Assembly (NCBI GenBank): GCA_026003215.1 | Contig: BPGV01000001.1 | Location: 1,178,466 to 1,242,465, forward strand | From: Bacteroidia bacterium | GTDB lineage: Bacteria; Bacteroidota; Bacteroidia; SpSt-205 | Direction: 5' to 3' | Length of the DNA stretch: 64,000 nt | Part shown: positions 38,559-44,243 of the stretch, piece by piece | Numbering within the stretch: position 1 is the first letter of the stretch | How the letters are laid out: every line of letters begins with the position of its first letter | Program-made: the position numbers and the translations under genes | Notes under the pieces: model-generated | Told to the model about the DNA's origin: nothing | Database searches by the model: none | Seen by the model: only the letters and a program-made list of their open reading frames with translations

Positions 38559-39419
38559 TCAGAACTCCAGCGCAAAGGTATCCCGCCCTATCGTATCGCC
38601 ATTCACCCCGATGAAGGTGGTGTAAATATGCCAGTCCCCCGTCATACTGAAGCCCGCTTTGCCCGCATAGTGTCCAGGCTTACCAGAAACCGGCATAGCA
38701 TCCTGGGACCCTTGCGCCCCGTGGCCCATGCTGGGCATCCAAGTCTGAATAGCTATCTTAGAAAACTCCGTCGCCGCCGGGTATCCCTCGGGCTGGGTCG
38801 CGGGCTGAGCCACATCCCGCTTATACACATAGAGCATCACATCCTGCGAACCCACCGCCGCATTGGCCAACCTTAGCTCATACAGGTAGGGGGGATTGTT
38901 CGGGTTTCCAAACTGGCGTCCCCGCCGTACCCATCCCCGCGGGTGGGGATTGACCTGAAGGGAAAAAGTCACGGTATCGCTACCCATCGCCACATGGAGC
39001 TTCCAGGGTTCGTCTGTGTCGCTGGGCATCATGAAGAAAGCCGCCCCATAGTAATACCCATCCTGACTTACGCCGGTGGGCTGCTCCACAGGACAGGAAT
39101 GAGCCATATTCCTCATATACATCATCGGGAGAAACCGCACATCCCTGCCGGTGTAGGCTGCCCCATTGGCTTGCGTAATGCGCACCCGAAAGCGATTGTA
39201 CCCCTCCGTAAAAGCGGTCTGCCCCGCCGGCAGCGCCCCATACAAATACACGTGGTAGCGATCATGGGCATCGTGCTCGTGTCCGATATCTACCCAGCTC
39301 TCCGTGGGAGAGCCGCCGCCAGAGGGATTGGACGAGGTGTCCTCTTTCTTCTTACAGGCTCCAAGACCGAGTACTATCCCGGCCAGAAGGATAAACCCAA
39401 GGCGTTTTACGCGTTTCAT
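38559..39419 (-). CDS. hypothetical Met/His-rich lipoprotein, possibly metal (copper) binding
   Basis: Lipobox LLAGIVLGLGAC, read from the internal ATG at 39419. It carries motifs HEHDAHDRYH, MMYMRNMAH and MPSMGHG. Confidence 0.45.
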   Translation of the reverse strand: MKRVKRLGFILLAGIVLGLGACKKKEDTSSNPSGGGSPTESWVDIGHEHDAHDRYHVYLYGALPAGQTAFTEGYNRFRVRITQANGAAYTGRDVRFLPMMYMRNMAHSCPVEQPTGVSQDGYYYGAAFFMMPSDTDEPWKLHVAMGSDTVTFSLQVNPHPRGWVRRGRQFGNPNNPPYLYELRLANAAVGSQDVMLYVYKRDVAQPATQPEGYPAATEFSKIAIQTWMPSMGHGAQGSQDAMPVSGKPGHYAGKAGFSMTGDWHIYTTFIGVNGDTIGRDTFALEF

Positions 39420-39449
39420 ACCGCTACAAAGATGCAAATTTTAAAGCAA

Positions 39450-40730
39450 ATGAAGGGCTCTCGCGCCTACCTTTGGGGGGTGCGCGTGCTGTATCTTACC
39501 TACGATGGGCTATTAGACCCTTTGGGCCAATCCCAAATACTCCCCTATCTGCGCGCCCTGCAGCAGGCCCTTCCTGTACATTTGTCTATTCTGAGCTTTG
39601 AGAAGCCGGAGCGCTGGCAAACCCATGGCCTATCTTTCCAGGAGACTTTGCAAGCAGAGGGGTTTCGCTGGTATCCGCAGCCTTTTACCGCCTCCCCGCC
39701 GATTTTGAGCAAGGCATACGACAGCTGGCGTTTTTACCACGCGGCCCAGCGCATTATTACCCAAGAACAGCCTCTTTTGCTGCATGCCCGCAGTTATGTG
39801 GCCGGATGGGTAGCGCACCGCCTAAGCAAGCGTTATCGTCTCCCGTGGATTTTTGACATGCGGGGCTTCTGGGCCGATGAACGCCGCGAAACCGGCGCCT
39901 GGCCAGAGAGCCACCCCTTCTTCCGAGCGTTATACCACCTGTGGAAAAAACGCGAAAAGGTCATGCTTCATACGGCCAGTGCTATTATTGTTCTTACCGA
40001 GGCCGCTAAATCTGTATTAGAAGCATGGGGCATTCCCGCCGAAAAGATAACGGTTATCCCCTGTGTGGCGGATTTTGCCCATTTCCGCCCGCTGCCCGAA
40101 AAGCCTCTCCCCCTTCTTGAGGCCCTGGAACTTCCCACCGATGCGTATATCTTGGGGTATGTGGGTTCCATCGGACCCTTATATGAGCTTACAGAAATGC
40201 TGCGATTTTTCCGGGTACTGCTTACCTACAAGCCGGAGAGTTATTTCCTTTTCTTCACGCCGGCCTCACCTGAGCCTATTTTGGCTGCTGCGACTGCTGA
40301 AGGCCTCCCCGCCGAACGATTTCGGGTGCGTTTCATTCCTCGGTCAGAGCTACCGACTTGGCTGGCCCTTTTGGATGCTTCTATTATTTTTTGTCGTCCA
40401 GGGTTTAGCCGTATAGGCAGCTCTCCCACGCGTGTGGCTGAGCTCTTAGCGATGAATATCCCCGTAGTGGTGCAGGCAGACTTAGGCGACAACCGCGCGT
40501 TGGCTGAAACAGGTACGGGGCTCATTCTGTGCGAGCGCTTCTCGACAGAGGCCTATGAGGAAGCCTGTCGTACGCTCCTCTCTCTCACGAGAGAAGGACC
40601 CGCTGACTTCCGCAGTCGCAGCGCGGCCCTTCTCTCTTTGCCGGTAGGTGTGCAGCGGTACGTAGAGGTTTATACCCGGCTTATTCCTGCGATGCAGAGG
40701 AGGCCCGTCTCACACTCACAAAGTGGATAA
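39450..40730 (+). CDS. glycosyltransferase family 4
   Basis: VRVLYLTYDGLLDPLGQSQILPYL is a GT4 N-terminus and a GT-B fold follows. The start could be the ATG at 39432 or 39450, or the GTG at 39480. The 170-aa upstream extension in the ORF track is antisense to the lipoprotein gene and I rejected it. Confidence 0.7.
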   Translation: MKGSRAYLWGVRVLYLTYDGLLDPLGQSQILPYLRALQQALPVHLSILSFEKPERWQTHGLSFQETLQAEGFRWYPQPFTASPPILSKAYDSWRFYHAAQRIITQEQPLLLHARSYVAGWVAHRLSKRYRLPWIFDMRGFWADERRETGAWPESHPFFRALYHLWKKREKVMLHTASAIIVLTEAAKSVLEAWGIPAEKITVIPCVADFAHFRPLPEKPLPLLEALELPTDAYILGYVGSIGPLYELTEMLRFFRVLLTYKPESYFLFFTPASPEPILAAATAEGLPAERFRVRFIPRSELPTWLALLDASIIFCRPGFSRIGSSPTRVAELLAMNIPVVVQADLGDNRALAETGTGLILCERFSTEAYEEACRTLLSLTREGPADFRSRSAALLSLPVGVQRYVEVYTRLIPAMQRRPVSHSQSG

Positions 40731-41232
40731 TCACCGCCAAGAGAAGGGCTACCCCCACCGCCGCCCCCACTAACCCCCAAAAAGTCGCCCGCAAAAACGC
40801 AAAGTCCTCTCTTTTCATAGGGCGCTGCTCGCCGGGATAAATGGGTTGAGTTCTCGAGGCAGGTGCGGTTGCGGTAGGTTGGGCTTGTGCCGGCGGTGTC
40901 ACGCTATTCAGATACGCCCATAAAGCTTTGAGCTCCGCTTCCCCCAAATCGGGGAAAGGCGGCATCACTTGCTGATTGTATTCCTTGAAAATAGCCACAG
41001 CGTCGGCATCCCCTGCCTGTATCAGCGCTTGGGAGTTTGCCACAAACCGCAGAAACCACTCCTGCGAACGGCGCTCTCCTATACGGGCCAGCGGAGGACC
41101 AATGAGCTTAGTCTCCACTTTATGACAAGCGGCACAGCGCTGTTGAAAAAGGGTCTTACCTTTCTCTTCGGGCGATTGCGCCCACAGAAGCCCTATCAGG
41201 GCTATGTAGAGTGCTTTACCTATCGTGCGCAT
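40681..41232 (-). CDS. membrane-anchored class I c-type cytochrome
   Basis: Signal peptide, the CAACH heme-binding motif and a C-terminal TM helix. Confidence 0.75.
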   Translation of the reverse strand: MRTIGKALYIALIGLLWAQSPEEKGKTLFQQRCAACHKVETKLIGPPLARIGERRSQEWFLRFVANSQALIQAGDADAVAIFKEYNQQVMPPFPDLGEAELKALWAYLNSVTPPAQAQPTATAPASRTQPIYPGEQRPMKREDFAFLRATFWGLVGAAVGVALLLAVIIHFVSVRRASSASQE

Positions 41233-41819
41233 AGCTGTAAAAGTTTAGAAGCATGCGTAAGAAGTCTGTCATCCTCAGAAGAATACACGCCTCGGATACG
41301 CCCTGCACAGTCTATCAAGAGAATAGCGTCAGAATGTAAAATCTCCTCTCCTTCCAGCGGAGCAGCGGTGAGGTCAAATACCTTGGTAGCCAGCTGGATA
41401 ACCCACTTTTGCGAAGCCGGCCGCAGAAATAGCCACCTCTGCCCTGGTACCCGATAGCTCTCGGCGTACGTGGCCAAATAGAGCGGTGTATCCCGTTCAG
41501 GGTCCAAGGAAATAGAGACCGCCACCAGCTTATCCGAAGGCGGCAAGTGGGAAAGCACCGCATGCAAGCGGCTTTGCAGCCGAGGGCATACCGACGGGCA
41601 GCGCGTATAAATAAAGTCCAGCAGCACCACACGCCCTTTGAAGGAGAGGGGAGCCACAGGCTGCCCGCTTGTATCGGTAAGGGGATATTGGGCCATCGTT
41701 TCCCACACACAATCGGAACGGATAGGTTCGGGTACATGGGTAGCGTCGTACCACCACCATCCCGCCGCAAAGAGGAAGGCTATGCCTATGCCTCCCCACA
41801 GAAGGAGCGTACGGGTCAT
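41220..41819 (-). CDS. SCO1/SenC copper chaperone
   Basis: Thioredoxin-like CPSVCP motif, an N-terminal TM segment, and a position adjacent to the oxidase genes. Confidence 0.8.
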   Translation of the reverse strand: MTRTLLLWGGIGIAFLFAAGWWWYDATHVPEPIRSDCVWETMAQYPLTDTSGQPVAPLSFKGRVVLLDFIYTRCPSVCPRLQSRLHAVLSHLPPSDKLVAVSISLDPERDTPLYLATYAESYRVPGQRWLFLRPASQKWVIQLATKVFDLTAAPLEGEEILHSDAILLIDCAGRIRGVYSSEDDRLLTHASKLLQLCAR

Positions 41820-43534
41820 TTTCGCACTTGGAGGGCAGGCGTAGGGTTATCGGGTTCGTAGGGGAGAGCTTTCTCGGGCGTGCGGAACGCCTGCCGCAAG
41901 GGCTCCCAGTACGAGACCGCAATAAGCAAGAGCGCTATAACCACCCAGGGCCGCAGCCGAGCCACGATTGAGGCCATACTTACCTCGGGATGAAGCCCCT
42001 CAGCGGTGGGGAAAGAGATCTCCCCTGCAGGCCGAGTAGCAGGCCCCGCTATCGTAGCTATCCACACCCCCAGATACACCAAAAAGGCCAGGGTCATCAC
42101 CGCAGCTCCAATCCCTGTAAGCATAGCCGAGGGCACCCAGTCCGCCCGGAAGTGCGGCGAACTCGGATCTAAGTAGCTGAGGCCCATGTTGGTGCGGCGG
42201 GGCTGGCCCAGAAGCCCCCCATACATCATCGCCGGCGAGAAGATAAAAATACCCAACATCCACAAGTACGGCACCGCTATATTCCATCCCCTCCCGCGGA
42301 TAGGTTTGCCCGTAAGCTGCGAAAAAAGCTCCAGAGACATACCCAGAATAATCAAAAACACCGGCCCGCCTACCGTCATGTGAAAGTGCCCCGAAATAAA
42401 GCCGGTATTGTGGATGGTTTGATTGAGGTTATAGGAAGCATTTACAATACCTGTTATGCCACCGAAGATAAAGATGATAAGGCCCGCTATGCTATAAGCA
42501 AAGATAGGCCGTTCCGCATCTAACCACGGGAGTTTAGCCATCCAGCCAAAGAGGCCTTTCGCCCCGCGACGCACACCCGCATATTCTAAGGACGCCGCCA
42601 CCGTAAAGGCCGTAATAAAACTGGGTATAGCCACACCAAAGGTCAGCAACGCATGTACGCCCTTCCAGAAGCGGTCAAAGCCCGGCTCCGTGTATTGGTG
42701 ATGCAGTCCCACGGGAATACTCAGGACTAAAAAGAGTAGGAAAGCCAGCCGTGCCGCATAGGGTGAATAGAGCTTTCCCCCAGCTACCCTGGGCAGCATG
42801 ACATAATACACAATATAGGCCGGTAAAAGCCAAAAATAAACCAAAGGATGACCAAAAAACCAGAAAAGCGTACGAGCCAGTGGGATATTAATCGCCTCTA
42901 CCCACCCCAGCGACCACGGGATAAGCATAAAAAGCACTTCTATCGCTAAGGGGATAGTGCAGAGGAACCATATCAGGAAGGTCACCAAAATCCCTACAAT
43001 CGCTAAGGGCAAGGGGTGGCTGGGGTTTTCGCGCATCCACTGGCGCACAAGGGGTATCCACCCAAAGAACGCCACCCACGAACCCACCACCAGGAGCGCC
43101 GCTCCGATATAAAAAGCGGGGTGGGCCTTGAGCGGCGGATAAAAGGTATAGAGCACATCAGCTTTCCCCAAAAGCATAGGCACCGCTGCTATCAAGGTCC
43201 CCCCCACCATCATGCTCGTAGAAGTAAGATGTACGGCCGGGATAAGGGCCTTTCGGAGGTAATAGGAGATGAGCGCATTCCCAAACACTACCCCAAAGAA
43301 AGTGGTCAGCACCACCGCATTAATCACCCCATGCAGGGTAAGGCCCTGGTAGTAGTTTAGCCCGGCAAAGCTTCCGCTGTGGATAATGCCTGCCCGATAG
43401 AGAGCCTGGAGAAACCCATGATAAATGCCTAAAACCAATAGCACAATAGGCAAAACCACTTCTATCACCATGAGCGTCCGCGAGAGCGGCGCCACTGTAT
43501 AAGAAGCTTGTTCAGATTTTGTAGGTGCAAGCAT
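41816..43534 (-). CDS. heme-copper oxidase subunit I, B-type (ba3-like)
   Basis: 12+ TM helices and a His-ligand pattern (GHPLVYFWLLPAY, HHQY). I trimmed the start to the ATG at 43534, which lies 8 nt after the subunit II stop. Confidence 0.8.
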   Translation of the reverse strand: MLAPTKSEQASYTVAPLSRTLMVIEVVLPIVLLVLGIYHGFLQALYRAGIIHSGSFAGLNYYQGLTLHGVINAVVLTTFFGVVFGNALISYYLRKALIPAVHLTSTSMMVGGTLIAAVPMLLGKADVLYTFYPPLKAHPAFYIGAALLVVGSWVAFFGWIPLVRQWMRENPSHPLPLAIVGILVTFLIWFLCTIPLAIEVLFMLIPWSLGWVEAINIPLARTLFWFFGHPLVYFWLLPAYIVYYVMLPRVAGGKLYSPYAARLAFLLFLVLSIPVGLHHQYTEPGFDRFWKGVHALLTFGVAIPSFITAFTVAASLEYAGVRRGAKGLFGWMAKLPWLDAERPIFAYSIAGLIIFIFGGITGIVNASYNLNQTIHNTGFISGHFHMTVGGPVFLIILGMSLELFSQLTGKPIRGRGWNIAVPYLWMLGIFIFSPAMMYGGLLGQPRRTNMGLSYLDPSSPHFRADWVPSAMLTGIGAAVMTLAFLVYLGVWIATIAGPATRPAGEISFPTAEGLHPEVSMASIVARLRPWVVIALLLIAVSYWEPLRQAFRTPEKALPYEPDNPTPALQVRK

Positions 43535-43542
43535 AGGCTTAT

Positions 43543-43983
43543 TTATTGGGCGATGAGATAGGCTACCATGTTTTGATGGGCAGAACCGCAATACTCATGG
43601 CAGATAATTGGATAGACCCCCGGCTTGTCCAAGGTGACGGTATAGGCATTGACCGCGCCGGGGATAGCCATGAGGTTAGCGTTACTCCAGCTGAGGTAGA
43701 AGCCGTGGGTAACATCCTTTGCGCTGAGGAAGATATCTATGGGCTTACCCACAGGCACCTCTACCACTTCTGGGTCAAAGCGCCACATCTGAGCTACATA
43801 GAAAAGCTGGCGTCGGCCATCAGGGAGGGTATCCACGCGCCCTTCTTTGAAGGGCTTCACCTCAGGGGGCAGGCACGGGGGCACCTCAATCTTTTGCAGA
43901 CGAGCAGCCGCCAGCAGCGCCAAGAAAAACACTCCCAACAGCCCCGAGGCAAAAACTAAAACGATTTTTTCCAGTCGGTCCAT
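43543..43983 (-). CDS. heme-copper oxidase subunit II (one TM helix plus a CuA cupredoxin domain), ba3-type
   Basis: 146 aa with the CuA ligands H...CHEYCGSAHQNM. Its small size is typical of B-family subunit II. Confidence 0.8.
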   Translation of the reverse strand: MDRLEKIVLVFASGLLGVFFLALLAAARLQKIEVPPCLPPEVKPFKEGRVDTLPDGRRQLFYVAQMWRFDPEVVEVPVGKPIDIFLSAKDVTHGFYLSWSNANLMAIPGAVNAYTVTLDKPGVYPIICHEYCGSAHQNMVAYLIAQ

Positions 43984-43987
43984 AGGC

Positions 43988-44122
43988 TTATCCGCGTTTG
44001 AGCATGAGGAAATAGCTCCCCAACCAGATAAGTATCGTCAGGAGCACCAGCAGGCCAAAAAAGGCCAAGCTCCCATACGGCACAAAGGCCGCCTCGTCGC
44101 GCTTAGGCAGGGTCGGTTCCAT
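43988..44122 (-). CDS. ba3-type cytochrome oxidase subunit IIa (CbaD-like), an unannotated 44-aa single-TM protein
   Basis: Not in the ORF track because it is under 60 aa. The sequence is MEPTLPKRDEAAFVPYGSLAFFGLLVLLTILIWLGSYFLMLKRG. AAAGGAGGTG precedes the ATG, and the TAA stop lies 4 nt before the subunit II ATG. Its C-terminus resembles Thermus subunit IIa (...ILVFWLGVYAVFFARG). Confidence 0.6.
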   Translation of the reverse strand: MEPTLPKRDEAAFVPYGSLAFFGLLVLLTILIWLGSYFLMLKRG

Positions 44123-44185
44123 AGGCACCTCCTTTTGGGCAAAGGTACGACTTTTCTTCATTTCAAATGGAACTGAACATACGAA

Positions 44186-44218
44186 GTAACAAAAAAGGGC
44201 AGCTCAAGGAGCTGCCCT
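44186..44218 (-). terminator. rho-independent terminator for the OMP gene
   Basis: Perfect hairpin GGGCAGCTC-CTTG-GAGCTGCCC followed by TTTTTTGT on the minus strand. Confidence 0.65.
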
Positions 44219-44243
44219 TCTGAACGCCTTGTATAGTAGACGC

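Follow-up and report, generated by a model that had tools for sequence, protein, structure and literature searches.

The oxidase gene cluster

The window, which is the whole 64,000-nucleotide stretch of DNA that was analysed, carries a tightly packed cluster of genes on its minus strand. The first cistron of this cluster is a small open reading frame (sORF) of 44 codons, and the order is IIa-II-I-SCO1-cytochrome c. Its coding features are:

43988..44122, minus strand: very probable subunit IIa (cbaD-like) coding sequence, 44 aa plus TAA; one transmembrane (TM) helix; conserved Pro15, Gly17, Trp33 and C-terminal RG
43543..43983, minus strand: subunit II, 146 aa; PF00116, E 6e-10; one N-terminal TM helix and a cupredoxin domain
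41816..43534, minus strand: subunit I, 572 aa from the ATG at 43534; 7deg_A, E 4e-169; Thermus ba3, E 2e-110
41220..41819, minus strand: SCO1/SenC-family copper chaperone, 199 aa, CPSVC motif; PF02630, E 4.5e-20
40681..41232, minus strand: monoheme cytochrome c, 183 aa, CAACH motif; PF00034, E 3.5e-13

Subunit II contains the full set of CuA ligands, H93, C128, E130, C132, H136 and M139, as in a cytochrome c oxidase and unlike a quinol oxidase, with Trp67 also present, and has a single hydrophobic stretch at residues 3-32. Its best PDB match is 7deg_B (E 2.7e-32), followed by the Thermus ba3 subunit II. At CoxII residues 67-68 (43783-43788) there is a Trp67-Arg68 pair (MWRF) where Aquifex has W66-Y67, a Trp-Tyr pair that has been proposed for electron entry from cytochrome c (PMC8251803). 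In subunit I, the heme b and heme a3 histidines are H68, H385 and H383, the CuB histidines are H229, H278 and H279, and the cross-link tyrosine is Y233. The B-family K-pathway residues Y233, Y244, S305 and T308 are conserved in the PDB alignments, the B-type K-pathway residues in Aquifex being Y226, Y237, S300 and T303 (PMC3128077). The assignment of the oxidase to the B-family in the initial annotation, made from the sequence of the window, is therefore supported by these K-pathway residues and by both large subunits having 7DEG as nearest match, then Thermus ba3. The longest open reading frame for coxI begins at a TTG at 43591 (591 aa) and overlaps coxII by 49 nt; this start was rejected, as the gene callers and the PDB alignments fit the ATG at 43534.

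Related loci were sought with subunit I as the query and with one genome per species. At least 562 related stretches were found, from which 80 loci were kept, most of them from the Bacteroidota. Nine are hot-spring Bacteroidia MAGs (L001-L009) with subunit I identities of 75–80%. The other 71 loci, at 50–59% identity, belong to the Chitinophagales, Saprospiraceae, Kapaibacteria, Ignavibacteria/Chlorobiota, Balneolaceae and MAGs named as Bdellovibrionota. The finding of a B-family oxidase had been considered notable for a Bacteroidota-like genome. This view is not sustained by the number of related stretches, by the predominance of Bacteroidota among the loci kept or by the NCBI names of the Chitinophaga homologs. 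B-family oxidases with IIa are widespread in the Bacteroidota and neighbouring groups, and the IIa of Rhodothermus and Salinibacter were already listed in 2011 (PMC3128077).

The SCO1 start overlaps the coxI stop by 4 nt and the cytochrome c start overlaps SCO1 by 13 nt. The cytochrome c has a C-terminal TM anchor at residues 145-179. In 71 loci the downstream DNA is long enough for the gene order to be read; SCO1 follows coxI in 70 of these, and the complete order IIa-II-I-SCO1-cytochrome c is found in 58. The proposed IIa/II/I operon is in agreement with the tight spacing and with the near-universal synteny upstream of coxII. Likewise, the SCO1 and membrane-anchored cytochrome c predicted downstream in the same direction are confirmed by their domains, the anchor and synteny. 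The membrane-anchored cytochrome c may reasonably be taken as the candidate electron donor, an interpretation backed by the synteny.

The cytochrome c gene and a convergent glycosyltransferase open reading frame (39432-40730, plus strand) overlap at their 3' ends by approximately 50 nt (40681-40730). A search of the minus strand beyond the cytochrome c gene gave no terminator-like site. Beyond this, on the same strand as the oxidase cluster and separated from it by the opposite-strand glycosyltransferase gene, is a 286-aa open reading frame (38559-39419) with a YtkA-like domain (PF13115, E 2e-11). Bacillus YtkA/CtaK is linked to CuA assembly, and the YtkA-like open reading frame could therefore be another oxidase accessory gene.

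Upstream region and start of the small gene

The minus-strand ATG of the sORF, at 44122-44120, is preceded by AAAGGAGGTGcct. The translation of the 44-codon frame is MEPTLPKRDEAAFVPYGSLAFFGLLVLLTILIWLGSYFLMLKRG, ending with the stop TAA at 43990-43988. Four nucleotides, GCCT, lie between this stop and the ATG at 43983 of subunit II, a 146-aa COX2-domain protein. In the initial annotation the frame had been described as a 44-aa frame with a Shine-Dalgarno (SD) sequence, an ATG and a stop 4 nt before the subunit II start, and all of these sequence statements hold on the minus strand. The features upstream of the ATG are:

44126..44135, minus strand: extended SD sequence AAAGGAGGTG, with a 3-nt spacer (CCT) to the IIa ATG; conserved in L001-L009
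44140..44147, minus strand: TACCTTTG, putative -7 box matching TAnnTTTG; TA..TTTG is invariant or nearly so in ten sequences
44164..44167, minus strand: TTTG, candidate -33 element of the Bacteroidota sigma-A type, its role taken from the published consensus
44193..44221, minus strand: terminator-like hairpin and T-run with a 13-pair stem, 7 of the pairs GC; it ends the upstream outer-membrane beta-barrel gene

The predicted hairpin at 44193..44221 delimits the oxidase transcription unit on its 5' side, and a spacer of approximately 70 nt is present between it and AAAGGAGGTG. The 110 nt upstream of the IIa ATG were aligned between the window and L001-L009. The conserved blocks are TTTG(A), then, 16–19 nt on, TA(cc)TTTG and, a further 6–12 nt on, AAGGAGGTGCCT-ATG. 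The TTTGA block, 16–19 nt upstream of the -7 box, is largely conserved in these sequences, although not in every locus. In the Bacteroidota the -7 box TAnnTTTG is positioned at -12 to -5 relative to the transcription start site (PMC9723704). The predicted transcription start is thus at approximately 44135, which would give a leader of 13 nt consisting essentially of the SD alone. A sigma-70 promoter scan upstream of the sORF gave nothing relevant, the consensus used being the wrong one for the Bacteroidota.

The same frame reaches a further ATG upstream at 44161, which gives 57 aa in the list of open reading frames. The sORF had been called unannotated, and this is correct for a track of open reading frames with a 60-aa minimum, but not for the public data, since NCBI and JGI both list the 57-aa version under a Bacteroidia MAG as a "hypothetical protein". 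An identical protein is found on three contigs, each assembled independently. The ATG at 44161 is not conserved in the relatives, whereas the SD and the promoter blocks are. In L002 and L007 the open frame starts just 3 and 6 codons before the homologous ATG, and the "KEVPM" found in frame upstream in relatives is the SD read as codons. The 57-aa start was rejected on these grounds and because its ATG is between the -33 and -7 boxes. As the longer call begins within a conserved Bacteroidota-type promoter, the 44-aa frame is the better model and the public 57-aa call probably has the wrong start.

Conservation of the small coding sequence

A hidden Markov model made from the sORF and its close homologs identified a matching small frame ahead of coxII in 78 of 80 loci, the remaining two being without upstream DNA. 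Nearly all of the frames with an assignable start end at most approximately 60 nt from the coxII start. The conservation of this sORF upstream of coxII in relatives, which the initial annotation had named, together with homology to IIa, as bearing on its interpretation, is therefore found wherever upstream DNA is available. Because most homologs end in R-[STIV], a regular expression demanding a C-terminal [RK]G was too strict and recovered the sORF from just 12 loci.

Selection was assessed from pairwise differences in an ungapped 32-codon core from ten close relatives. The differences at codon positions 1, 2 and 3 number 333, 69 and 813, respectively. Synonymous and non-synonymous codon differences are in the ratio 647:297 in the IIa frame, as against 106:841 and 45:890 in the shifted frames. 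The IIa frame is a coding sequence under purifying selection and not a chance frame.

Identity of the small subunit

Searched by itself, the IIa peptide gives borderline results. It scores 18.4 bits against Pfam CoxIIa PF08113, where the gathering score is 20.7 (E 0.0019), and the top three PDB matches by phmmer, all of them IIa chains, have E values of 0.12–0.19. In phmmer, residues 15-44 of the 44-aa peptide align with residues 5-34 of Thermus IIa, and RG ends both. A family profile built from 55 homologs and searched against 177,635 PDB sequences matches only three: 7deg_C (E 1.4e-9), 1xme_C (3.7e-6) and 1ehk_C (5.4e-6). The resemblance of the C-terminal helix to that of Thermus CbaD, noted from the sequence at the outset, is borne out by the 30-residue phmmer alignment, although its E value is borderline, and by the profile match at 3.7e-6. 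The sensitive HMM search that had been recommended for IIa homology was thus positive at the level of the profile and borderline for the single sequence.

PF08113 is matched at E≤0.01 by 36 of the 55 family members, with a best value of 4.8e-9, and the other 19 fall short. A database search with the profile returned many proteins with precomputed PF08113 matches, and several of them, from Chitinophaga, Ginsengibacter and other Bacteroidota, carry the NCBI name "cytochrome c oxidase subunit 2A". In an NCBIfam scan, neither the sORF nor two of its homologs matched a family, and NCBIfam apparently has no HMM that covers these IIa peptides. With PF08113 below threshold and no NCBIfam match, automatic annotation can be expected to go on labelling the IIa of this clade "hypothetical".

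The invariant or nearly invariant columns of IIa are F13, P15, G17, A20, F21, F22, L25, W33 and Y37, with G17 and W33 aligning with Aquifex Gly14 and Trp30. These two residues were found to be conserved across 27 bacterial and archaeal IIa sequences by Prunetti et al. 2011 (PMC3128077). In the same study, the family was characterised by the position of the gene directly upstream of a one-helix subunit II and by a PX1-3G[T/A] motif (PMC3128077). The sORF has P15-Y-G17-S18, with Ser in place of the usual T or A, and its close relatives have PYGA or PYGS. PYGS is a conservative variant of the P-X1-3-G-[T/A] motif. Bacterial IIa range from 34 to 71 aa (PMC3128077); the sORF, at 44 aa and with exactly one predicted TM helix, is within this range. 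Kyte-Doolittle windows of 19 residues exceed 1.6 over a single hydrophobic stretch, residues 10-43, and AlphaFold2 with a 46-sequence alignment gives one helix at residues 16-43 with a mean pLDDT of 84. Hydropathy and structure prediction therefore agree on the one TM helix that had been proposed.

The sORF at 44122-43988 on the minus strand is with high confidence the 44-residue IIa (CbaD, Pfam CoxIIa) of a three-subunit B-family heme-copper cytochrome c oxidase. Because the peptide alone is below the Pfam threshold and gives an E value of around 0.1 against solved IIa, the assignment rests on the family profile and synteny. The IIa/CbaD identity given in the initial annotation is upheld by a profile that matches nothing but IIa in the PDB, by synteny, by selection and by the independent B-family call of subunits I and II.

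The extended Shine-Dalgarno sequence

Pairing strengths were compared for the public gene calls of 13 neighbouring genes, using an assumed canonical 16S 3' tail, as the 16S tail is absent from the window. On this assumption the pairing of the IIa SD is -15.9 kcal/mol, compared with -3.3 to +0.2 kcal/mol at the 12 neighbouring gene starts. A strong SD hexamer before any candidate start was found for 2 of the 45 long open reading frames in the window, a crude count in which the start codons are uncurated. Chitinophagales and other homologs outside the hot-spring clade have A-rich leaders, mostly without an SD. The ribosomes of Bacteroidia have been reported to be SD-blind, pairing stronger than -13 kcal/mol being characteristic of rpsU (PMC9976891). 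A conserved SD of predicted rpsU strength in an otherwise SD-poor Bacteroidia genome is unusual.

The coxII and coxI genes are without an SD, their ATGs being positioned 4 and 8 nt past the preceding stop (TAA). GCCTATG is common to the starts of IIa, II and I, and the last two also share the context TAAGCCTATG. Given the absence of an SD and the closeness of their ATGs to stop codons, coxII and coxI are probably translated by coupling or re-initiation.

The SD AAAGGAGGUG might act as a regulatory device that makes the translation of IIa, and of the coupled II and I, dependent on a subpopulation of ribosomes with a free anti-SD. Such a free anti-SD could come, for example, from ribosomes lacking bS21 or from release of the anti-SD at high temperature. 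For Flavobacterium rpsU, translation by ribosomes lacking bS21 has reportedly been shown. This reading of the SD, taken together with the dual-donor reading of a recurring Glu described in the last section, is speculative and on balance unlikely. If true, it would tie respiratory capacity to the state of the ribosome. The conserved SD could offer a natural system in which to test whether specialised translation depends on an SD in genes other than rpsU, and this is the sole lead of wider interest from the locus.

Proposed role and alternative explanations

Transcription of the cluster would begin at approximately 44135 from a Bacteroidota-type promoter, TTTG ... TACCTTTG, with the 44-aa start being the real one. 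By comparison with the solved homologs, IIa would cross the membrane as a single helix, next to the one TM helix of subunit II and packed on subunit I. There, with its polarity reversed, it would take the place that TM helix 1 has in A-type subunit II. From homology with Thermus and Aquifex, it may contribute to the assembly or stability of the I/II complex. SCO1 is predicted to load CuA and the membrane-anchored cytochrome c to deliver electrons. The structures from Thermus and Aquifex show IIa as one TM helix, located where A-type subunit II has its helix 1 but in the opposite orientation (PMC3128077, PMC8251803). The earlier statement that this subunit structurally replaces the first helix of A-type subunit II is therefore correct as to position, but with the polarity reversed IIa is a spatial substitute and not a split-off homolog (PMC3128077, PMC8251803).

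One alternative is that the sORF is unexpressed and arose by chance between genes or within a 5' UTR, in keeping with its shortness and with the expectation that a 9-mer like AAGGAGGTG occurs by chance 0.67 times per window. This is contradicted by the distribution of substitutions over the codon positions and the frame-specific synonymous excess, by conservation in 78 of 80 loci and by a profile E of 1e-9 to a solved subunit, so that the explanation is already refuted and its probability negligible. The sORF could instead be mainly a translated leader (uORF), its SD recruiting ribosomes for the coupled coxII and coxI, with the peptide not being a stoichiometric subunit. In favour of such a leader, its start is the only one with SD pairing among the 13 neighbouring genes, and the SD-less coxII has its ATG 4 nt past the sORF stop. 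However, it is the amino-acid sequence itself, beyond the existence of an open reading frame, that is conserved across phyla, and the peptide is kept in most of the SD-less homologs outside the hot-spring clade. The peptide is also homologous to subunits seen in crystal and cryo-EM structures (PMC8251803). A role in coupling and a role as a subunit can coexist, and a leader function in place of the subunit function is very unlikely.

Since two TM helices are present in some B-type and all A-type subunit II proteins (PMC3128077), the sORF might also be the N-terminal helix of a subunit II that had two, separated from the rest by a frameshift or an assembly error. The same layout of a stop and a short spacer is seen in approximately 75 independent assemblies, and the identical protein is on three independently assembled contigs. 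The solved IIa helices run opposite to helix 1 of A-type subunit II, which argues against a simple split. A split gene is effectively refuted by the recurrence of the layout and can be given next to no probability. The assignment as subunit IIa is the explanation preferred here.

Significance for annotation

IIa is a known type of protein, reportedly since the Thermus structure of 2000. The value of the present assignment is that of routine annotation and leaves existing biology unchanged. Through it, an entry listed as a "hypothetical protein", probably with the wrong start, becomes the third terminal-oxidase subunit in an uncultured hot-spring Bacteroidia clade, made up of the window and L001-L009. 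The Pfam CoxIIa model narrowly misses this clade (18.4 versus 20.7 bits). The frequent omission of IIa from annotation was the subject of the 2011 paper (PMC3128077).

Comparison with known systems

The closest solved enzyme for all three subunits is Aquifex aeolicus CoxA2/CoxB2/IIa (7DEG; Zhu et al. 2021, PMC8251803), with Thermus ba3 next. Of the PDB chains, Aquifex IIa (7DEG chain C) matches the family profile best (E 1.4e-9), and its gene has the same position, directly upstream of a one-helix subunit II. It shares the pattern F-x-P-x-G ... W ... Y ... R-G, Aquifex P12, G14 and W30 being P15, G17 and W33 in the window, and the operon contexts of both involve a membrane-anchored cytochrome c. 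The N-terminal tails of the two IIa differ. In Aquifex, IIa lines the dimer interface and the naphthoquinol pocket, where Glu39 bonds the quinol head group (PMC8251803). This residue, a naphthoquinol ligand at the dimer interface, is Lys42 in the IIa of the window, so nothing suggests quinol ligation in the window enzyme.

Glu39 was described as confined to A. aeolicus (PMC8251803). An equivalent Glu, before the C-terminal Arg, is found in 20 of 75 homologs from related loci, mostly from the Chitinophagales (for example L067:3446-3598 and L023:3472-3594). If this recurring Glu is meaningful, it would point to the use of both cytochrome c and quinol as donors beyond Aquifex, an interpretation that does not apply to the window, which has Lys42.

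Thermus thermophilus CbaD (1EHK and 1XME, chain C) is likewise a single TM helix; it has 34 aa, its gene directly precedes cbaB, and it shares the C-terminal WLG-Y....RG with the IIa of the window. CbaD is 10 residues shorter at the N-terminus and has no AFF motif, a feature of the Bacteroidota and Aquifex type. In subunits I and II the window operon is less close to Thermus than to Aquifex (subunit I E 2e-110 versus 4e-169).

The "subunit 2A" proteins (PF08113) of Chitinophaga and the Chitinophagales match the same family profile, with E values of 1e-15 to 1e-18, and their loci have the same order IIa-II-I-SCO1-cytochrome c. These IIa are 40–55% identical to the window peptide. They differ from it in their C-terminus, which is usually E/S-R-[STIV] rather than K-R-G, and their genes are without the upstream SD. 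TM helix 1 of A-type subunit II, for example in Paracoccus aa3, occupies the same position in the complex (PMC3128077, PMC8251803). Its polarity is opposite to that of IIa, which is a separate polypeptide.
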